64,000 bases of DNA, from NCBI GenBank assembly GCA_018651925.1, contig JABIDC010000009.1, positions 16,403 through 80,402 of the forward strand, read 5' to 3'. The notes under the pieces are model-generated. The model saw only the letters and a list, made by a program, of their open reading frames with translations. It had not been told where the DNA came from and did not search any database. Source of the stretch: an archaeon (GTDB taxonomy: Archaea > Nanobdellota > Nanobdellia > Pacearchaeales > GW2011-AR1). Within the stretch, counting starts at the first letter, position 1. Each line of letters opens with the position of its first letter. Below are positions 15,821 to 26,728 of the stretch, one piece after another. Made by a program: the position numbers and the translations under genes.

Positions 15821-17986
15821 TTAACTAAACATTCCCCCAAGAACTACTGAAGTTAAACCCACAAGTGCAAGAGTAGAAATTAATGCCACTACAAAATAAA
15901 GGACAATCCCAATCTTTAAATTTTTACCAATTTTATTTACCCTTACCAAATCATCCTTTCCCGAATCAATTGTAACCAAAGTTCCAGTTAAAATAAAAAT
16001 TATTTGAATCAAATAAATTCCAACCGCTAATTGCAAGAAATATGGGGGAATCATTGCTAGCACATCAAAAATATTCATAATATTTTCCACTCCTGCAATT
16101 CCAATATCTTGGCCAGCATCTAAAGAAGTTTGCATTTTTCCTAAAATCGAAGTAATCATAACAGATAATCCAACAACGACTCCAGAAAGTAAAGGTGCCA
16201 AAAAAGTCATATTACTTTTCATATCTGAAATTACTTCTGCTAACAAATCATTAAGCCTTACAGAAATCTTATTAATATTTTTAACATACTCCGAAATACT
16301 CATTAAACTCACTGCAGCAATTTTCAATCCTTTTTTAGAAGATTCAAGAAAAATTCTCATTGAAGTCGCAATTAATTGAGAAGGATAATAAATTATTGCT
16401 CCACGATTTTTATCAAAAATTGCTTTCTCTACACTCATTCCCGCATTCCGAATATTAAAATCAATTTTTCTAAAAAAATCCTCAATATTCAATCCGCGAG
16501 AAGACTCTGCAACTTTTCCAAAAACTAATTCCGGAGGAACCCCATTTCCAACACGATTTCCTAATTGGAATAAAGAAGAATTAAATTCCTTTTCTAGATT
16601 TCGGGTTTTCTCTCGCTCAACAATTAAATCTTTAGTTTTAGCATTATATGCAATGATAAAGAAAAAAGCTAACCCCAGAGGGAAAAACATTCCAAGCAAA
16701 GTTGCACCTAACCCAAAAGGCCCAACAGTTTGACCAGCATTATCTATAAATCCGAAAAACATCTCATTCTCTCCCATAAATCCTAAACCAAGTTCCCCAA
16801 AAGAATAATCGCTTTGCAAACCCATTAATTCCGGAATTGGAGTATACCCGAAAATCAGAGGCAAAATTCCTAACAAAAATAATGGAAAACAAATCACAAA
16901 AGCTTTTGTAAATACCGAATTATCTTTGTACTTAGGATACAAAGGATTACGTTCAAGAAGATCAGTTTCCCCATGACCCCCTGGACGAAGAAGTAAAACT
17001 TTGTCTGTTAAATAATAAACAAAAAAAGGAACAATCATATTAAATAAAATAACAACATGAACCCAAGTAACCAATCCTCCCAACATTGAAGATGCAAGAG
17101 GGATCATTGCTAAAGACAATGTTGGCAAAACAACCCCTAACATATAAACATTTGTCAAGGGACTTCTAACAGAATGACTAAACTTAAGCATCTTATCATA
17201 AACTCCATCAAGAACAACCTGTAAAGATTTTTCCAACGTAGCAATTCTCCGATTTTGGTCTGGTTCAAATAAACTTCCTTCAATCAAATGAAAAGCCTCA
17301 ACAAACTCAGAAGAATAGTCTCTCCAAGTTTCCAAATAATTATCTAAACTTTCCTTAATTGTAGAAAATTTTCCAATTTCAACATTATAAAATACTTTTT
17401 TAAAATCCAAACTTAAAGGATACTGTAAATGATCTGAAGCAAAAGCAATTGCTTTTTCTAAATTAGGAGTATGCCTCATATAAACTACAACATACAAAAT
17501 AGCTGGGACCATCTGACTAGAAGCCTTAAGTCTCCAAGAATTAGCAAGTCTCTCTGGATAAGCATTAATAAAATAATACAAGAACATGGATAAAATTAAA
17601 GAAAGAAAGAAAAACAAAAAAGGAAAAGCTCCATTAATAAATAACGCTGCTAAAGAAGCAAACAACCCAATTAAAAAAACCGCTAAAAAACTCATCATCC
17701 CCAATGAAAGGGCTTGCCAAGGTTCTAAGTCCAAATGTGCAATTTCCAAAGATCTCCGAACTTTTACTGCATCTTTTTCAGCAACCTTTATTTTAATTAT
17801 GCTTCCTAAACTTTTACACCATCTTTCATATCTAGAAAGTTCAGAACTCATTTCTCCCCGAAACTTTGAATAATCTTGACTATAATTAGAATCACTCCCT
17901 CCGCCATTCATTTGGCTTTCAATTTTGCCCCCATACTTTTGCAAAACTTCTTCTACAGTCGGTTTTTTATTAGAACCCATATGCAC
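15821..17986 (-). CDS. Polytopic membrane protein (721 aa, about 10 TM), candidate pilus platform protein (FlaJ/TadC/T2SSF-like)
   Basis: The call rests on position between the pilins and the secretion ATPase, and on an architecture of TM pairs separated by two soluble helical regions. The T2SSF assignment is by context, not by a recognised motif. Confidence 0.5.
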   Translation of the reverse strand: MHMGSNKKPTVEEVLQKYGGKIESQMNGGGSDSNYSQDYSKFRGEMSSELSRYERWCKSLGSIIKIKVAEKDAVKVRRSLEIAHLDLEPWQALSLGMMSFLAVFLIGLFASLAALFINGAFPFLFFFLSLILSMFLYYFINAYPERLANSWRLKASSQMVPAILYVVVYMRHTPNLEKAIAFASDHLQYPLSLDFKKVFYNVEIGKFSTIKESLDNYLETWRDYSSEFVEAFHLIEGSLFEPDQNRRIATLEKSLQVVLDGVYDKMLKFSHSVRSPLTNVYMLGVVLPTLSLAMIPLASSMLGGLVTWVHVVILFNMIVPFFVYYLTDKVLLLRPGGHGETDLLERNPLYPKYKDNSVFTKAFVICFPLFLLGILPLIFGYTPIPELMGLQSDYSFGELGLGFMGENEMFFGFIDNAGQTVGPFGLGATLLGMFFPLGLAFFFIIAYNAKTKDLIVEREKTRNLEKEFNSSLFQLGNRVGNGVPPELVFGKVAESSRGLNIEDFFRKIDFNIRNAGMSVEKAIFDKNRGAIIYYPSQLIATSMRIFLESSKKGLKIAAVSLMSISEYVKNINKISVRLNDLLAEVISDMKSNMTFLAPLLSGVVVGLSVMITSILGKMQTSLDAGQDIGIAGVENIMNIFDVLAMIPPYFLQLAVGIYLIQIIFILTGTLVTIDSGKDDLVRVNKIGKNLKIGIVLYFVVALISTLALVGLTSVVLGGMFS

Positions 17987-18029: not shown

Positions 18030-21000
18030 TTAATTTTTATCTAAATTACTTTTAAAAGAATTATATTTATTTTTCCTCTCAAAAAAATGAATCAAAAGAA
18101 AAATAATTACAATTAAAATTGCAAAAGAAATTCCAATTAAAAAGTATTTGAAAAAATTATTTTTTTCTCCATTAACCATTCTAGCGATAATTGCAACTTC
18201 CCCTAAAGAATCTACTTCAGAAGAGAAATAAACAAAAATTTCATCACGGCTGATTTCACTTGTTAAATATTCCTTCGAATGAGACAAAGAATATAATGTT
18301 ATATCTGTCGCATTCAATAAATTCACTTCTATCCAAGAAAGAGGAACTTTGAAATACACTTTCCCCCGAACAAATCCAGAATCTGAACTCAAATTAAAAA
18401 TCTCGTAATTAATTATTTCCGAATCTAAGAAATAATCTGATTCATTTAAATCTCCAATTTCGAAGTTAAATCCTGTTCCAACATGCTCAATTTCTGCAGA
18501 ATAAACAGAGCCCCCCTCAAAAGAAAAATTACTTTGAATAGAATCTAGCTCCTCCCCCAAATAAAGATCTCCATCATCTCCAGAATAGGGGGAATCATCT
18601 CCTCCATTAGGACTCCCCGAACCAGGACTATAATCATCTGGAGTATCTCCCTCTGGCTCTGGTTCCCCACAATCTGAATCATTCAAATCAATAAATTCAT
18701 CACAATCATTATCTAAACCATCTTCACAAAGTTCAAAAACTCCTTCCAAAGGAGAACAATCACTCACTTGCGATCCTTCCTCGCAGATTAAAATCCCCTT
18801 ATTTACGCATGACCCGATTCCACAAGTTGTTTCATTTCCAAACCAAGATTCATCAATTCCATCTTCAGTAGATTCATCGCAATCATTATCTAAACCATCA
18901 CAAAGTTCTGGTGAGCCAAGAACTCCTGGAGCACAAGTATCTAATTGAACCCCTGCTTCACAATTAAAAACCCCTATATTTGAGCAAGCCCCAATTCCAC
19001 AATTTGTTTCATTTCCAAACCAAGATTCATCAATTCCATCAGTTGTTTCAGAATCACAATCATTATCTAAATCATCACAAATTTCCTCTTCTCCCGGATT
19101 AATATTTGAATTTTCATCATTACAATCTCCATGTCCAATAAATCCAATCTCTCCACTACATCCTCCCGCCTCCAAATAATATCCATCTTCATCTCCATCT
19201 GTACAGGTAGGAATTGTTTCAGTATCATAATATTTAAAGTCAGAAATAATTTCTTCCCCTGCACCATTAACATAAGAACAAGCCCAATTAAAAGCCCCAT
19301 TCAATCCTCCAATATTAAAAGTTTTAGAAGCAGTAATTCCAGTTAAGCCACATTGAGCAGTAGAATACCTTGCAGGAAAATTATTAACTAAATTTAATGC
19401 ATCCACTCCGCAAGAAGAAACTGGATCAAAGGAAAGATCGTCTGTAATCAAAACTAAATCTGGATAAGTCCAATATCCATCCACCGCAGCATCTATAATT
19501 TGGATATTTTTAGTTCCAGAAGTAGTTGAAACGTAACTTAATCCATTTTCCCAAGTAAATCCTCCGCTTCCATCCCCAAAAATTGGGCTCATATAATTTT
19601 CAATTCCAACTTGCCAAGTCCGATCACTCCCCCCAACATCACTTCTTGCAAAAACTGAATAAGTTCCAGAATCTAAAAATAAATTATAAGTCATATTTGA
19701 GCTTCCATCAGTTCCTTCTTCACTGATTGCATGTCCTAATGCGCTTGCAGTATTTTCAACAAAGACATTATTATCTTCACAAGATTCTAAACCAAAACAA
19801 ACATCCCATTCAGATTCAGAAAAATTAAATTTCTCTGCTTCTAAAAAATAATATTTATTAGATAAAAGTTCCTCTGTTTCCAGGATTTGCTCAACCCCAT
19901 AAGTTTCTTTTACTAAAGAAATACTCTGAATTCCTGTTGGATCCTCAATATCACAAATAAATTCCACAGTAGTTTCTCCCCCAGCACCATCAAAAGGAGA
20001 AGAAGTTATTTCTGGTACACATTGATCATCAAACCCATTACAATTTTCATCGATGGAATTCCCACAATTTAACAAAGGACTTTCAGCTTGTTGGCCAAGA
20101 AAAGGATTACAAGTTTGAGGAACACCGGCAACACAATTTTGAATAGTATTTGTGCAGATCCCTTCTCCACAAGTAGTTTCTCCTAAATATTCGTCAGTGT
20201 TATAATCACAATCATTATCTATTCCATCACAAATTTCCTCGCTTGGAACAATTGCTCCAACACACACACTCCAAATTCCACTCTCGCAAGTTTGTATTCC
20301 TTGTGTACATTGCCCTTCAGAAATTCCACAAGCCCTAGTTTCCCCATTAGTAGAACAACTTCCTCCAGTTCCCAAGGCAAAATTAAAATCAGTTTCTTGG
20401 GTAATTGTATACTCTCCAACTTCTTCAATGGTATTTTCATATTGAACATAAAATAGATGGGGTGTCATGGATGTCCTATTATGAACTCCCGAAGATCTCA
20501 TATCTCCTTCCTCATAATATTCTGTAACAATTAATCTCGCTTCTCCTACAACATTCGTTATTTCGGAAATTGTTTCCGGCAAAGAACTTGTTGAAATTGC
20601 AGTCACAATCGCATTTTCTAAAGGAGTTCCAGAAGCATCAGTAACCCTCACATTCACATACCATTGCTTAGAAAGATCATAAAGAGAAGTGTCTGTACTT
20701 GCGGTAAAAAAGTAAGCATCTTCTTCAAAACCATTCTCAAAATGATTATTTATCAACCTAATTCCAGGAGCTGTTGCACGATAATATCCAAATCTAATTG
20801 CAGATTCTGGCATTGAAGGCGAATAATAGGGATTGTCTACTCTTACAAAAGTATTATTTTCTAACCACTGATTTGCAGAATCTCCATAAAAAGAATTTAT
20901 CCATAATGCCTTATCATTTGTTTCAATATAATTATCTTTGAACAAAGGGTTTCCCTCATTATTATATGCATCTCCTCCAATATAAAATGCAAATACTGGA

Positions 21001-22655
21001 CTATCATCTCCTGCAGAAGTTTTTGTAACATAATATTTATTATTCCAAATCTGATTATTTTCTCCAGCAGCAGAATAAAATATTCCAGTTGTTACAGGCA
21101 TACAATTGTCATAAGCAGTTTCAAAATCTCTCCCTTCAATGTAAAAAGTATTATTTATTACATGATTATCATGGTTTGATCCACTTCCATAATCATTCAT
21201 TCTTATTGCATTCGTTGAATAATCTTCATTAATATATTCAACATTACAAGTAGCAGTTCGAACATAAAAAGTATTGTTTGTTATTTTATACCCATTACCT
21301 GAATAAACTAAAATACCACTTCCTTCAATTGGATCAAAAACATTATTATGGATAACTGGATTTATTGCACCACTATGAATGATCGCATAATGATTTGTTG
21401 ACTGAGCATTATTTCGGATATAATTGTATGAAACATTTGTTCCAACTCCCCCTAAACGAATTACTCCTTGCCCCCCAATCAAAGTATTATTATATAATAG
21501 CCCACTTCCCATAACAACATTTTCTTCAATGCTATTTTCTCTAGCAAAATACCATGGCATACTAACTTCTAAATGATTATTGTAAACATCTCCCCCCGTT
21601 CTTACCGTCCTAGATTGCATCCCTTGAACTCTAACATCCAAATCATGAAATTTTCCCATTGGAGCAGCAGAAGTTCTAAGAGCATAAGAATTTAAATTTT
21701 CATTTCCAATACGAATATTTCCATTCATAACTTCTAAAACTGGACGCCGATAATTATAATCTCCTAAATCTCCAGAATCCCAAGAACCTTGAAAATCTTG
21801 ACCAGGATAATTAACTTCTAATTGGCCCCCATAATTATATGAACTTCCACCAATAACTCCATAATCAGAATTAGGAACAATTCCAGTTCTATCAATATAT
21901 GCATAACCTTGTGTGGTTATTCTCATCTTATATTGCCCAGTATTATTTGCAAGAAATTTACAACCGAAAGATTTTCCCCGAAAAAAGCCCTCAGAAGTTT
22001 CTGAACAAATTAAATTATTATTTGCATCATATACATCAATTGTTAAGTCAGCAGTTTGAGCGCGGCCAAAAGTGGCATAGGCCACATATTCTCTTGGTGC
22101 AATAGGTAAATTAACATAAGAAGATTCTATACTCAGTGCATCTGCAGTATATAAAACAAAGTCCCCATGCATTGGTTGATAATAGGAAGTATTTCTTGCT
22201 TCAACAGTTCCAGAAAGAACATTCCAATTAATAGGATTATTTCCAGACCATAATTCAAAACCATTATTTGAAAGAGTTTGATAATCTGCTCCAGAATAAG
22301 TAAGAGTATATCCATTTAAGTCAATTGTAGTTGTAAATTTCTCTTCAGGTTGACCAACAAAACGTGTTACAATGCAAGATCTATCACAATTTAAATCTCC
22401 AGATAAAATAAAATAATAATCTGCTCCAGAAGTATCATCCAATACATAAACATCCCATTCAGAAAGATACTCGTAATTTGCACCAGATTGCCCAGGAACA
22501 ATTTCTTCACAATTATCAACAGAAATACCTGCACAATTAATGTCTCCGATTGCATATCCCGTGAGATTTCCGAATCCAATATAAGAAAGAAAGAACCCAA
22601 TTAATAAAAGAGCAACAACTGCAAATAAAAAATAACTCTTAATCCCCTCATTCAT
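18030..22655 (-). CDS. Giant (1541 aa) membrane-anchored surface/adhesin-like protein
   Basis: It has an N-terminal signal-anchor and a region of repeated NN(T/V/H)F/NNxY turns typical of parallel beta-helix (PbH1) repeats. A CarboxypepD_reg-like segment (VNVRVTDASGTPLENAIVTA) follows. At least six Cys-rich CDGxDNDCD modules of the MopE-type putative metal-binding kind come next, then an acidic Pro/Gly linker, a PGF-pre-PGF-like segment (VYFKVPLSWIEVN...GEVAIIA) and a C-terminal TM helix. Confidence 0.75.
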   Translation of the reverse strand: MNEGIKSYFLFAVVALLLIGFFLSYIGFGNLTGYAIGDINCAGISVDNCEEIVPGQSGANYEYLSEWDVYVLDDTSGADYYFILSGDLNCDRSCIVTRFVGQPEEKFTTTIDLNGYTLTYSGADYQTLSNNGFELWSGNNPINWNVLSGTVEARNTSYYQPMHGDFVLYTADALSIESSYVNLPIAPREYVAYATFGRAQTADLTIDVYDANNNLICSETSEGFFRGKSFGCKFLANNTGQYKMRITTQGYAYIDRTGIVPNSDYGVIGGSSYNYGGQLEVNYPGQDFQGSWDSGDLGDYNYRRPVLEVMNGNIRIGNENLNSYALRTSAAPMGKFHDLDVRVQGMQSRTVRTGGDVYNNHLEVSMPWYFARENSIEENVVMGSGLLYNNTLIGGQGVIRLGGVGTNVSYNYIRNNAQSTNHYAIIHSGAINPVIHNNVFDPIEGSGILVYSGNGYKITNNTFYVRTATCNVEYINEDYSTNAIRMNDYGSGSNHDNHVINNTFYIEGRDFETAYDNCMPVTTGIFYSAAGENNQIWNNKYYVTKTSAGDDSPVFAFYIGGDAYNNEGNPLFKDNYIETNDKALWINSFYGDSANQWLENNTFVRVDNPYYSPSMPESAIRFGYYRATAPGIRLINNHFENGFEEDAYFFTASTDTSLYDLSKQWYVNVRVTDASGTPLENAIVTAISTSSLPETISEITNVVGEARLIVTEYYEEGDMRSSGVHNRTSMTPHLFYVQYENTIEEVGEYTITQETDFNFALGTGGSCSTNGETRACGISEGQCTQGIQTCESGIWSVCVGAIVPSEEICDGIDNDCDYNTDEYLGETTCGEGICTNTIQNCVAGVPQTCNPFLGQQAESPLLNCGNSIDENCNGFDDQCVPEITSSPFDGAGGETTVEFICDIEDPTGIQSISLVKETYGVEQILETEELLSNKYYFLEAEKFNFSESEWDVCFGLESCEDNNVFVENTASALGHAISEEGTDGSSNMTYNLFLDSGTYSVFARSDVGGSDRTWQVGIENYMSPIFGDGSGGFTWENGLSYVSTTSGTKNIQIIDAAVDGYWTYPDLVLITDDLSFDPVSSCGVDALNLVNNFPARYSTAQCGLTGITASKTFNIGGLNGAFNWACSYVNGAGEEIISDFKYYDTETIPTCTDGDEDGYYLEAGGCSGEIGFIGHGDCNDENSNINPGEEEICDDLDNDCDSETTDGIDESWFGNETNCGIGACSNIGVFNCEAGVQLDTCAPGVLGSPELCDGLDNDCDESTEDGIDESWFGNETTCGIGSCVNKGILICEEGSQVSDCSPLEGVFELCEDGLDNDCDEFIDLNDSDCGEPEPEGDTPDDYSPGSGSPNGGDDSPYSGDDGDLYLGEELDSIQSNFSFEGGSVYSAEIEHVGTGFNFEIGDLNESDYFLDSEIINYEIFNLSSDSGFVRGKVYFKVPLSWIEVNLLNATDITLYSLSHSKEYLTSEISRDEIFVYFSSEVDSLGEVAIIARMVNGEKNNFFKYFLIGISFAILIVIIFLLIHFFERKNKYNSFKSNLDKN
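18660..19100 (-). repeat. Internal tandem duplication (about 180 nt / 60 aa period) encoding CDxLDNDCD...WFGNET.CGIG.C modules inside the giant gene
   Basis: On the plus strand, ccaaaccaagattcatcaattccatc...tcatcacaaa recurs near 18838 and 19018. The protein repeats are ICDDLDNDCDSETTDGIDESWFGNETNCGIGAC and LCDGLDNDCDESTEDGIDESWFGNETTCGIGSC, plus a truncated third copy. The bounds are approximate. Confidence 0.7.
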
Positions 22656-22692
22656 AAAAAAATAATATCTTTTACCTTAATAAAGTTTTATA

Positions 22693-23334
22693 TCACATTC
22701 TTCTTGCTTCATTTTTCTTCTTAGCAAGATAAGAGCCAATCAAAAAAACTAAAATTGCTAGGACAACTATAGAAATTAAAATTAAAAAAGCAATTTTAAC
22801 AGAAGAATAATCTTTTTCCACTGAATTATCCACGATAATTGCAATTTCTCCAAAATAATTTAAAATAGAATTATAATAAACAAATTCTTTGTCCCTTAAA
22901 ACTTCCCAAGTAGGATTTTTCCTTTCATCTAATATCGAAAACAAAACAATTTTTGAAGAATCAATTTTATTCTCCTGGAATCAACTGAGAGGGATTTTAA
23001 AATAAATTCTATTTTCTACAGATTCTCCAAAAGATTCAACTTTAAACAAATCATAAACAAATATTTCTTGAAAAGGATAATTCACTTCTTCTACTCCAGA
23101 AAGATTCAGATCAAAATCCTTTTCTCCAGAAATTTTGATTAAATAAATTGAATTATTTGGAAAACGAAAATCTATTAAAGAAATATTATTTTCTTCTAAA
23201 TTTAAACTTTTTTCAAAAGGAGCCTCAGGACCAAAAATTACCCCTCCTGTGAATGAAAAAGAATTTTTAACAAAGAATAAAATAATACCAATTACCAAAA
23301 ACCCCAAGAGAAAATAAAACTTATTAACTTTCAT
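22693..23334 (-). pseudogene. Small membrane-anchored PGF-pre-PGF-like protein, paralogous to the giant protein's C-terminus, interrupted by one in-frame TGA (22981-22983)
   Basis: ORFs 22981..23334 and 22693..22944 are in the same frame and are separated only by the TGA. The downstream piece has no ATG (the track starts it at TTG). The read-through sequence YFKIPLS*FQEN...GEIAIIV aligns with the giant protein's YFKVPLSWIEVN...GEVAIIA. Confidence 0.65.
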
Positions 23335-23379
23335 ATTGAAAAAAATAATTTAATGTTAATAAAAGTAACCCAAATTCAA

Positions 23380-24390
23380 TTAAAGTTTTGCCACAAGAAT
23401 TTTCAAATTAACTAAACTAATTCCCCCTAAGAAAAGAGAATAAAAATAATAAATTATTCTTTGCAAAAATCCGACTAATAAAGCCAAAGGAGGAGGAACC
23501 CCCATGACAGTATACAGCAAAGTCATAATGCTCTCCACAATCCCCATCCCTCCCGGAACAGGAGAAAGATTACCAATAATTTGACCTAATGTAAAAACAA
23601 TAATAATTGAAAGGAAATTTAAATGGCCCCCAAATGCAAAAAACAAAAAGTATGCCGTGAAAAAATTCCCTGCCCAAAACAAAATTCCAAATAAAACCCC
23701 AATGAAAAAAGTTTTTTTATTCTTCAAAATTTTCTCAAAGGACCCATAAAATGAATGAAATTTAACCCGAAGATAATCAATGAAAATTTCTTCTGTCTCA
23801 AATCTTCTTTTAAGAAATTTCAACCAATAAACTTTTCTAAAAAAAGTTTTCCAATTAGAACGAGACTTTTGAAAAATAATATAAAAAACAATAAAACTGG
23901 ACAAAAATACAAAACAAAGAACTCCAAACAAAATCCACTTTAAACTACTTGGAATCGGCACATAGAAAAAAACAAAACATATTGAAAATAAAACAAACAG
24001 AAATAAGACCAGCATCCGGAAAAAACTATCTGCTATAACTCCTCCAAAAACTTCACTTTTAGATTTACCATATTTTGAAGCGAGATAATGTGCTCGAAAA
24101 GGTTCTCCTCCAACACCCGCGGCAGGAGTAACGGTATTAAAAAATGCCCCTGCCAAAGTAACCTTCATAAAATAAAAAAAATCAAATTTTAAAAAACCTG
24201 CAAAAATATTTTTCCAATTAAAAACCGTTGAAACAAAAGTCAATCCCGTTGCCAAAATAGCTAGAAGAAACCAACCAATTTTAGCTTGAGAAATTAATAA
24301 ATAAACTTCATAAAAATTAATATCCTTTAAAACAAAGAGTAATAAAAAAAAAAGAATTAAAATTCCAAGAACATTTTTTATCTTTCCCAT
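23380..24390 (-). CDS. Polytopic membrane protein, flippase-like / LPG-synthase-TM (UPF0104) family
   Basis: It has about 8 TM helices. The N-terminal pattern (K..l.iliLffll..l..i.f.ev...i..a...wlllai) and the GGEPFR-type loop (GVGGEPFRAHYL) are typical of that family. Confidence 0.55.
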   Translation of the reverse strand: MGKIKNVLGILILFFLLLFVLKDINFYEVYLLISQAKIGWFLLAILATGLTFVSTVFNWKNIFAGFLKFDFFYFMKVTLAGAFFNTVTPAAGVGGEPFRAHYLASKYGKSKSEVFGGVIADSFFRMLVLFLFVLFSICFVFFYVPIPSSLKWILFGVLCFVFLSSFIVFYIIFQKSRSNWKTFFRKVYWLKFLKRRFETEEIFIDYLRVKFHSFYGSFEKILKNKKTFFIGVLFGILFWAGNFFTAYFLFFAFGGHLNFLSIIIVFTLGQIIGNLSPVPGGMGIVESIMTLLYTVMGVPPPLALLVGFLQRIIYYFYSLFLGGISLVNLKILVAKL

Positions 24391-24442
24391 AAAATACCAA
24401 AAATAAAAATCCTTAATAAAGGTTTTCTTATTTTATCTAAAT

Positions 24443-26728
24443 TTAAAACTTTTTAGATTTTATCTTTTCATTCAACCATTTTTGCCACTCGGGGAAAACT
24501 CTTTCGCTAGTAGGAAGCCCAATTTCTTGAATAATATTATCTGAAATCTTATGAAAGGAATCATTTGCAATAACACTAAAACCTGCTTCAAGAATTTTAT
24601 CATTCTTAATTTTTTTAGAAACCTCTACAAGCTCATTTTTTATTTTTGAACGAAGCAAAATATTATCATAAACTGCATCCCAATCTCCTGCCCAACCTTT
24701 TACATTAGCAGCAATATCTTTTATTATTTCACTATCCCCATTAATTAAATCGTCTGTGGGTTCTAGCTCATCTTTCTCCACATTATATTTCATTAAATCA
24801 ACAAAACCTTTTTCTTCCATCGGATCTTCTGTCCAATGCTTTCGAATTTCAGATAATTGTAAAAGTCTTCTCCACGAATGCATTCCATCAGGAGACTTAA
24901 TTGGATTTGCAACAGCAATAATGTCTGTTGCCTTAAAACTGGTTTTAGGAACACCCAAATCATTTACCACCCGATCATAAACCCCATAAGGTGATGCTCC
25001 ATGAATTGTTCCTGCAACAACATTCGCAAGAGCTCCAACACGCATAGCTTCATACAATGCTTTTGCTTCTTCCGAACGAACTTCACCAAGAATCAAAGCA
25101 GAATCTCCTAAACGCAAACTTGTCCTAATTCCATCCTCTGCAGAAACCTCTGCAGTTGTTTTCAATAAAGCAGAACGAACCTTCATCCTTAAAATATCAT
25201 AATTCAAATTTCTTAAGGCAGTAACAGGCAATTCCAATGTATCCTCAATTACAATCACTCTATTCTTAGGGATAATTTCTAACATCAAACTTCCCAACAA
25301 AGAAGTTTTTCCTGAACTTCTAGTCCCAGCAACAAGCATCGTTCTTGCTCCATCAATTAAAAAACTCAATAGTCCTGCAGATAAAGGGTTAACCATTTTA
25401 TTTTTTATAAATAAAGGGAGAGTCCAAGGATCTTCCCTATGTCTTCTGATTGAATAAGCAAGACCATCGGGACTCAAAGGTTCTTGAATAATTGCAACTC
25501 TTGCACTAATCTTCCCAATTTCCAATTGAGTATCTAAAATCGGATTTGCTTCATTCAGCGGCCTACCAGAAATCATTCTAAATTTCGCAGCCCAAGAATC
25601 TGCATCTTCTGCACTAGGTAAAATATTTGTTGAACATTCTCCGTGAATTCCGTGGCGAACAAAAATATTCACTTTTGGAATGGGTGCATTTAATGAAATG
25701 TCCTGAAGATGTTTATCTTGTAACAAAACTTCTAATAATCCAAAACCAATTGTATGCCTAACTAAAATTATTGAAAGATTATTTAATTCCGAATAACTCA
25801 AACGAATACTTTTTGAATTTGCAAGATCCGAAATCAAATCTTTTGAAATATTAAAAAATACTTGTCTAATTCTATCTGTATCGGTAAATTCCTTTGCTTT
25901 TGGTTGGTGTTCCATCAAAGTTCCTCTCGCTAAATTCAAAAGAGAATTAAAATCCTCACTCAAAGAATTCTCAGGAGGACTTAAATGATAAATAAGTTTT
26001 GCTTCATCTTTTTTCTTTAGAATTGTTACTAAAGATTTATCATAATCTTTACCAATTTCATATTGATCAATAATCTCAGAATCTCGAGGCAAATCAAAAA
26101 CTAACCGAGTAAAAGTAAAATTCGGGATTACATCTGGCTTAAAGATCAAACGATAAACTTCCCTGTCTCCCGTGGAATAATCTGAAAGATAAGGCAAAAT
26201 CAAAGAAATCAATTTAGTTTTTTCAAATAAAGAGATTAATTTTTCTAAATAGTAAATATAATTTGCAAAATCAGATTTATTTTCTTCGCCAGCTTTTGTT
26301 GAATCAATTTTTGCTTCAATTAAAAATTTTCTAAGTTCATGATATGCATAGATTGGATCTTTTTTTAATACGCTCAAAAAAGAAAACATTGAATTGTATC
26401 TTTTTGAAAACATTGCTTCATTCGAACTAGCTAATTTTTCATGAGATAAAATCCTCTCTTGTTTTAGCAAAAAAGTGTAAAAATTTGCAACCTCTAAAAG
26501 ATAATTTGTTTCTTTCATATCATAATTATAATTTTTCTGTTGAACAAAAACAATTCTCGAAACATTCTGATTTTCAATTAACAAATCGACAACTCTTTCC
26601 ATAATTTCTGGCATCTCAACTAAACTCGGAATAAAGGGCGCACCTACAAAATTAACATACATCACATCTTCTCCACCTTCTCTCGAAACCTCGTAATCAT
26701 ACAATGGAGCATCCTTCCCAAATTGCAT
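24443..26728 (-). CDS. Type II/IV secretion system ATPase (FlaI/VirB11/GspE family) with long N-terminal extension (761 aa)
   Basis: Motifs include Walker A VAGTRSSGKTSLLGSL, VIVIEDTLELP, the Walker B/His-box region LILGEVRSEEAKALYEAMRVGA...GTIHG, and LQDISLNAP in the upstream region. Confidence 0.85.
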   Translation of the reverse strand: MQFGKDAPLYDYEVSREGGEDVMYVNFVGAPFIPSLVEMPEIMERVVDLLIENQNVSRIVFVQQKNYNYDMKETNYLLEVANFYTFLLKQERILSHEKLASSNEAMFSKRYNSMFSFLSVLKKDPIYAYHELRKFLIEAKIDSTKAGEENKSDFANYIYYLEKLISLFEKTKLISLILPYLSDYSTGDREVYRLIFKPDVIPNFTFTRLVFDLPRDSEIIDQYEIGKDYDKSLVTILKKKDEAKLIYHLSPPENSLSEDFNSLLNLARGTLMEHQPKAKEFTDTDRIRQVFFNISKDLISDLANSKSIRLSYSELNNLSIILVRHTIGFGLLEVLLQDKHLQDISLNAPIPKVNIFVRHGIHGECSTNILPSAEDADSWAAKFRMISGRPLNEANPILDTQLEIGKISARVAIIQEPLSPDGLAYSIRRHREDPWTLPLFIKNKMVNPLSAGLLSFLIDGARTMLVAGTRSSGKTSLLGSLMLEIIPKNRVIVIEDTLELPVTALRNLNYDILRMKVRSALLKTTAEVSAEDGIRTSLRLGDSALILGEVRSEEAKALYEAMRVGALANVVAGTIHGASPYGVYDRVVNDLGVPKTSFKATDIIAVANPIKSPDGMHSWRRLLQLSEIRKHWTEDPMEEKGFVDLMKYNVEKDELEPTDDLINGDSEIIKDIAANVKGWAGDWDAVYDNILLRSKIKNELVEVSKKIKNDKILEAGFSVIANDSFHKISDNIIQEIGLPTSERVFPEWQKWLNEKIKSKKF

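Follow-up and report, generated by a model that had tools for sequence, protein, structure and literature searches.

Introduction

The question raised by this locus is what a TGA codon is doing in the middle of an otherwise open gene. On the minus strand of the window, that is, of the whole 64,000-nt stretch of archaeal DNA that was analysed, two open reading frames follow each other in one and the same frame. A preliminary description, made from the letters of the DNA, had noted that the stop codon between them coincides with a tryptophan residue of a neighbouring protein, and it had left three options: a very recent nonsense mutation, population heterogeneity or a sequencing error, and local read-through that makes both a secreted N-terminal fragment and a full-length anchored form. 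We have weighed these options, together with codon reassignment and with the existence of two separate genes, using homology searches, a structural model, independently assembled copies of the locus, and the stop and start signals of the window.

A single TGA interrupts an open reading frame

The upstream open reading frame (22981..23334, minus strand) starts with an ATG at position 23334, comprises 117 codons (23334..22984) and ends with a TGA at 22983..22981, which appears as TCA on the plus strand. It has been called as a 117-amino acid protein (P0003) on 21 contigs, and its sequence predicts a hydrophobic helix near the N-terminus (about residues 5-23) followed by the first half of an anchor module. 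In the same frame, the downstream continuation (22693..22980, minus strand) consists of 95 open codons and a second TGA at 22693-22695; these codons specify the other half of the anchor module, a transmembrane helix and a basic tail with the sequence AKKKNEARRM. The coordinates, the common frame and the separation of the two pieces by nothing but the TGA at 22981-22983 were thus confirmed. The earlier remark that the downstream piece lacks an ATG also holds, as it contains no usable ATG and its sole methionine is the C-terminal one. Given the local composition, where the stop probability is 0.09 per codon, a stop-free run of 95 codons would arise by chance with a probability of about 1e-4, and no further stop or frameshift was detected within these downstream 95 codons.

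Reading across the TGA (codon 118; 22981..22983, minus strand) gives a product of 213 amino acids (P0002), which we refer to as the stub protein. In it, the N-terminal helix is closely followed by an F-T-G motif (residues 28-30, nt 23245-23253). Next come about 115 residues that form a beta-rich module, and the protein ends with the transmembrane helix (residues 181-203, nt 22726-22794, minus strand) and the basic tail. The TGA cuts the module, a PGF-pre-PGF-like juxtamembrane beta-sandwich (residues 53-167; 22834..23178, minus strand), at the invariant tryptophan of a K-[IV]-x-[LFKR]-[ST]-W motif; for W143, also in this gene, the codon is TGG. Counterparts of the post-helix motif are NLTG in the giant neighbouring protein and NFTG in homologues of this giant. 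When the 64 kb were scanned for stops with at least 60 open codons on either side, no other interrupted gene was found. The G+C content is 26-34% over the window and about 30% for the genome.

Homology continues across the stop

BLASTP comparison of the read-through product with the giant neighbour, a surface protein of 1541 amino acids (P0001; 18030..22655, minus strand), gave a score of 70.9 bits and E=4e-18, with 38 identities in 115 positions (33%). The alignment joins residues 55-167 of P0002 to residues 1376-1490 of P0001, which constitute the C-terminal anchor module of the giant (nt 18186-18530), and it is unbroken over the stop. Codon 118 pairs with W1441 of the giant, for which the codon is TGG at 18333-18335. 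The claim that the TGA falls on a tryptophan of the neighbour, and that the read-through product aligns with the C-terminus of the giant, therefore stands up to a formal pairwise test. The term paralogue, which had been applied to the giant, is appropriate as far as a homologous C-terminal module is concerned, but not in the sense of a recent duplication: with an identity of only 30-39% to every giant-protein anchor module compared, the stub belongs to the module family as a divergent member and is not a recent copy of its neighbour.

When 1.84 billion representative proteins were searched exhaustively with HMMER, only 12 matches were returned: the two pieces and the giant protein of the organism itself, and C-terminal ends of other large DPANN-type surface proteins (451 to 2117 amino acids). 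In all homologues the module is contiguous and lies C-terminally in a larger protein, and, as judged from these sequences, it is an anchor module common to many large DPANN surface proteins. In an alignment of the stub with eight homologues (A1), the column of the TGA contains tryptophan in 8 of 8 homologues and is one of only nine invariant columns; the six invariant columns situated downstream of the stop are all intact in the stub (6/6). Likewise, leave-one-out profile scoring gave 46.7 bits for the stretch of 50 residues that follows the stop, a value within the range of 43.7-65.4 bits obtained for intact family members.

The NCBIfam profile TIGR04213 (PGF-pre-PGF) matched residues 107-167 of the stub, a segment that spans codon 118, with E=2.5e-5 and 24.3 bits, which is below the curated cut-off of 28 bits; the match is confined to the final third of the profile (positions 90-152 of 153). 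At the same place of the giant, the profile scored 23.5 bits. Since the score lies under the cut-off, the sequence of the stub module qualifies it as PGF-pre-PGF-like rather than as a certified family member. What it has in common with PGF-pre-PGF proteins is a beta-rich module just before a C-terminal anchor and an F-K-V-x-x-S-W-[IL]-x-x-N motif; in contrast to them, it continues into nothing more than a transmembrane helix and a basic tail, and neither a PGF motif nor a match to the PGF-CTERM family was found at its C-terminus.

An anchor module followed by a transmembrane helix and a tail of the type K-[KR]-[RK]-N-K-F-[KR]-F is common to giants with different passenger regions, which occur in the organism and in co-occurring DPANN contigs (P0064, P0065, P0066 and P0072). 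Such common ends suggest module shuffling or an exchange of surface-protein ends. The tail of the stub departs from this motif. On a contig of 569 nt (L020, positions 2-554), a homologue of the giant C-terminus is present as two overlapping open reading frames of 67 and 122 amino acids, which may be due to an assembly error or else represent a further disrupted copy of the module, from a different population.

The stop lies in the middle of a predicted domain

An AlphaFold2 model (m33fcf6bbbe2e) of stub residues 47-213, built on a nine-sequence alignment, had a mean pLDDT of 80.2 and a pTM of 0.63. It consists of one beta-sandwich followed by the transmembrane helix, and within this single sandwich five strands precede the stop and five come after it. 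If the model is correct, the 117-amino acid product would be half a domain that is not self-contained and is still attached to the N-terminal helix.

When the model was used for a fold search of the PDB, no significant match was obtained, the best E being 0.048. Among the structurally closest, but weak, matches to the anchor module were the GAIN domain of BAI3 (4dlo), the NLRP1 FIIND in the NLRP1-DPP9 complex (7crw) and the ZU5 domain of ankyrin (3ud2), with Foldseek probabilities of 0.47-0.89, E of at least 0.1 and a TM-score of about 0.37, so that they may well be due to chance. All three are juxtamembrane autoproteolytic beta-sandwich domains, and their adjacency to a membrane anchor is like that of the stub module.

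The TGA is present in every assembly

The 642-nt gene including the TGA is identical in 11 of 12 independently assembled loci (L001-L012), and the twelfth locus, which ends within the gene, also shows the TGA. The loci stem from the NCBI MAG Candidatus Woesearchaeota archaeon SI037S2_bin65, from ENA assemblies, from Logan contigs and from JGI metagenomes, one of which was sampled at 200 m in Saanich Inlet in 2009, and both MEGAHIT-style k141 contigs and SPAdes-style NODE contigs are represented. In addition, the contigs of 8 sequencing runs, which belong to several studies and were released 2012-2019, carry the TGA codon without any variant; the depths are 2-8x and rare variants are dropped in such contigs. 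As the TGA is found in every assembly, an error is excluded, and the option of a sequencing error or of heterogeneity had to be abandoned at the contig level, with 12 assemblies and 8 runs all having TGA. That the TGA might still be an artefact, be it a sequencing or assembly error or a consensus that masks a common TGG allele, is exceedingly unlikely. The low depth of contigs from which rare variants are lost would leave some room for a minor allele, but loci from different assemblers and sources agree with the 8 runs, and neither the 213-amino acid full-length form nor a TGG variant is present among 5.8 billion protein clusters or among the 1.84 billion representatives.

Comparison of L001-L012, which differ in sample, year and assembler, with positions 19981-26334 of the window revealed 1 mismatch in about 50 kb compared, indicating that this uncultivated marine Woesearchaeota population is remarkably clonal. 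A search for a divergent strain, made with a threshold of 85% likeness on contigs from 16 DNA runs, yielded nothing but pieces with 100% identity and short, spurious matches. Because the population is nearly clonal, the fixation of the TGA is uninformative with regard to its long-term retention.

TGA serves as a normal terminator in this genome

Among the open reading frames of at least 100 amino acids in the window, 12 of 63 end in TGA, and three of these form ATGA start/stop overlaps. The stops at 572, 5062, 13926, 14944 and 22693, which had been listed as TGA terminators in the preliminary description, are all correct. Under a code like NCBI table 4, TGA would not terminate at all. Furthermore, in the 61 open reading frames counted (18,323 codons) there are 133 TGG codons versus one in-frame TGA. 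The earlier judgement that a genome-wide meaning of TGA as tryptophan is unlikely is therefore borne out, as TGA ends 11 other open reading frames and the tryptophan codons are TGG.

Recoding of the codon, either because TGA means tryptophan throughout the genome in a code 4-like manner or because codon 118 specifies selenocysteine, would be in line with the position of the stop in a tryptophan column. Against it stand the 11 other open reading frames that end in TGA, among them those with ATGA overlaps with the next start, the excess of TGG codons, and the fact that no other stop in the window lies between two halves of a recognisable gene. Also, a search of 3 kb against Rfam, with E up to 1, gave no match, and hence no SECIS element, and no suppressor tRNA was found within the window. 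Selenocysteine normally replaces cysteine and not tryptophan. Altogether, the probability of recoding is very small.

Start signals and the possibility of two products

In most genes of the window, including those for the giant and the flippase-like protein, a TTTATTAA, TTTAAA or TTTATAA box is found about 22-30 nt (at about -27) before the ATG. The stub gene has a TATA-like box TTTTATTAA (23356..23364, minus strand) about 22-30 nt upstream of its ATG, as in a leaderless-type promoter. Shine-Dalgarno-like motifs are not enriched, being present in 8 of 61 genes versus a background of 16%. The spacing of the boxes and the lack of Shine-Dalgarno enrichment suggest that mRNAs are mostly leaderless and that genes have promoters of their own, also within apparent operons. 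Re-initiation at an in-frame ATT, preceded by AGGAG just past the TGA, was considered as a candidate and rejected, since the genome does not make use of Shine-Dalgarno sequences.

The two pieces might each be functional. The 117-amino acid fragment would then have a role of its own, either tethered to the membrane or cleaved past the FTG motif, or the downstream piece of 83-95 amino acids would be expressed on its own and act as a small tail-anchored protein. Gene callers have indeed produced a 117-amino acid gene and an 83-amino acid gene, the latter with a TTG start, in all public assemblies, and an A/T-rich stretch AATAAAAT is located about 20-27 nt upstream of that TTG. However, an ATG and a canonical TTTATTAA or TTTAAA box are both lacking in the downstream piece, which also has no support from Shine-Dalgarno usage in the genome; each piece amounts to half of one predicted beta-sandwich; and neither architecture occurs in any homologue, the module always being contiguous in a larger protein. 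We therefore regard two functional products as very unlikely. With respect to the proposal of a secreted N-terminal fragment, the 117-amino acid piece retains its N-terminal membrane helix and is not an obvious secreted product.

Signals for read-through were not found

The RNA of 131 nt around and after the stop has a predicted folding energy of -19.9 kcal/mol, as compared to a mean of -23.9 kcal/mol for shuffled sequences (z=+1.4), and it thus folds worse than they do. The context TGA-T at codon 118 is the commonest one at genuine TGA terminators in the window (5 of 10 others). With no downstream structure, no leaky context and a stop in mid-domain, the option of local read-through, as formulated at the outset, was not upheld. 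Three metatranscriptome runs of the same study contained nothing of the organism over 12 kb and were uninformative. Peptides that read-through would be predicted to generate are IPLSWFQENK at the junction and the downstream tryptic peptides IVLFSILDER, NPTWEVLR and EFVYYNSILNYFGEIAIIVDNSVEK.

A weaker form of read-through deserves separate treatment. UGA is the leakiest stop codon and its near-cognate decoding inserts tryptophan (PMC7918605), and a further report describes structural variants of tRNA-Trp(CCA) that read UGA in other organisms, a shortened anticodon stem and D-arm changes being of the kind that permits this (PMC13092985). In the present case, tRNA-Trp(CCA) might decode UGA118 rarely but usefully, selection would keep the stop, and the amount of stub anchor protein would be kept low in comparison with the giant. 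With near-cognate tryptophan, precisely the invariant residue would be regained, the downstream half has not decayed, and the TGA is fixed in all samples. But there is no stimulatory structure, the context equals that of genuine terminators, and the stop is placed in the middle of a domain, whereas known programmed sites lie at domain boundaries. As TGA is freely used as a terminator, a generally enhanced decoding of UGA would be costly. Moreover, conservation of the stop has no orthologues to draw on, and in a clonal population fixation carries no information. Selected leaky read-through is for these reasons unlikely, and its most specific version, in which selection keeps the TGA so that low-rate decoding of UGA118 by tRNA-Trp(CCA) delivers a small, tuned dose of stub beside the giant adhesin, is more doubtful still.

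Classical cases of read-through, such as the A1 coat extension of Q-beta and gag-pol of MuLV, resemble the stub gene in having an in-frame stop (UGA in Q-beta) beyond which the open reading frame continues. In those systems, however, the stop is located at a domain boundary, both products fold, and a special context or a pseudoknot is involved; the stop of the stub gene is in mid-domain and lacks such a signal. In-frame stop cases described by Belinky et al. for prokaryotes are founded on a stop at the same position in orthologues and on dN/dS below 1 (PMC7918605). The stub gene is like them insofar as it has an in-frame TGA in a coding frame at which near-cognate decoding would insert tryptophan. 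It differs from them, and from basal UGA decoding in bacteria, in that it belongs to an archaeon, which uses aRF1, and in that it is without orthologues.

The stub and giant genes form a lineage-specific cassette

The stub and giant genes together occupy about 5.3 kb (18030..23334, minus strand) and are flanked by a gene for a flippase-like protein (23380-24390) and by a gene for a membrane protein of 721 amino acids (15821-17986). These flanking genes belong to a type IV pilus-like cluster with a conserved order, in which genes for a T2SSE-type ATPase of 761 amino acids, a flippase-like protein and a membrane protein of about 720 amino acids are followed by pilin-like genes. Three relatives possess flippase-like orthologues that are 75, 57 and 54% identical, and in them the gene for the protein of about 720 amino acids comes next after 39-90 nt; the 721-amino acid protein of the window is 74% identical to the 720-amino acid protein of one relative (L014). 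Neither a stub nor a giant gene is present at these three syntenic loci (L014, 8001-11206; L016, 8001-11260; and a JGI contig of 162,890 nt). Because the flippase-like gene of the relatives directly adjoins the gene for the protein of about 720 amino acids, the stub and giant genes are a lineage-specific insert. The insertion site looks like a variable slot for surface proteins in an otherwise conserved operon.

Orthologues of the stub gene were sought as well, as they might carry TGG at the position of the stop or consist of two separate genes. A word-indexed protein search with the read-through product retrieved only the organism's own 117-amino acid piece, and scans of genome and metagenome contigs gave identical copies only. 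Orthologues were thus found nowhere among the collections searched, neither as two separate genes nor with a TGG. The anchor region of the giant shares 54% identity, over 242 residues, with the corresponding region of the giant P0072 of another marine DPANN contig (L017, 1-8816), where two giant genes are arranged in tandem and no stub is present. At the locus of P0064, two tandem giant genes occur without a stub partner.

Discussion

In our opinion, the locus probably contains an accessory, dispensable gene that suffered a recent nonsense mutation from TGG to TGA, now fixed in a clonal population. The first of the options originally listed is therefore the best supported one, as the stop replaces an invariant tryptophan and is one G>A change away from TGG, the downstream half has not decayed, and the gene is absent from the syntenic relatives. 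A G>A change at the third codon position also fits the AT-biased composition.

The course of events may be pictured as follows. The ancestral locus would have been a single gene for a surface protein of 213 residues, in which an N-terminal signal anchor with the FTG motif and a short linker precede the module; such a stub would correspond to both ends of a DPANN giant surface protein without the passenger region. Presumably, codon 118 was TGG in the ancestor, and a single G>A transition would have turned this tryptophan codon into TGA. Translation would now halt when five of the domain's ten strands have been made, and the truncated product is presumably non-functional. The gene may thus be inactivated, or traces of the full-length protein may still be formed by basal near-cognate decoding of UGA by tRNA-Trp. 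Loss of the gene would be tolerated, since the cassette is accessory, lineage-specific and absent from close relatives. The mutation would then have been fixed in the nearly clonal marine population, and it would be young, given that the downstream half is without further damage.

The intact downstream half can be read in either of two ways, as it is expected equally after a recent mutation and if the region is still translated. That continued selection would also leave this half intact is a point against the nonsense reading, and since further lesions are lacking, a pseudogene is compatible only with a recent event.

Nonsense pseudogenes that arise by TGG>TGA changes in AT-rich prokaryotic genomes offer the closest likeness: a stop that is one transition away from a conserved sense codon, a frame that is otherwise intact, and an accessory gene the loss of which is tolerated. 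The stub gene differs from them in that no intact orthologue and no secondary lesions accompany the stop, and clonality sets no upper bound to its age. The finding is real but ordinary.

We know of no case in which functional, tryptophan-inserting read-through of UGA has been established in Archaea. If the stop of the stub gene were decoded, it would be the first such case, and it would provide a clean natural reporter in which the invariant residue is restored. If, instead, the gene is an ordinary pseudogene, the consequence is a matter of annotation, in that the called genes of 117 and 83 amino acids are the halves of one disrupted gene, and the stub would be a small snapshot of how the variable cassettes for surface proteins turn over in DPANN archaea.
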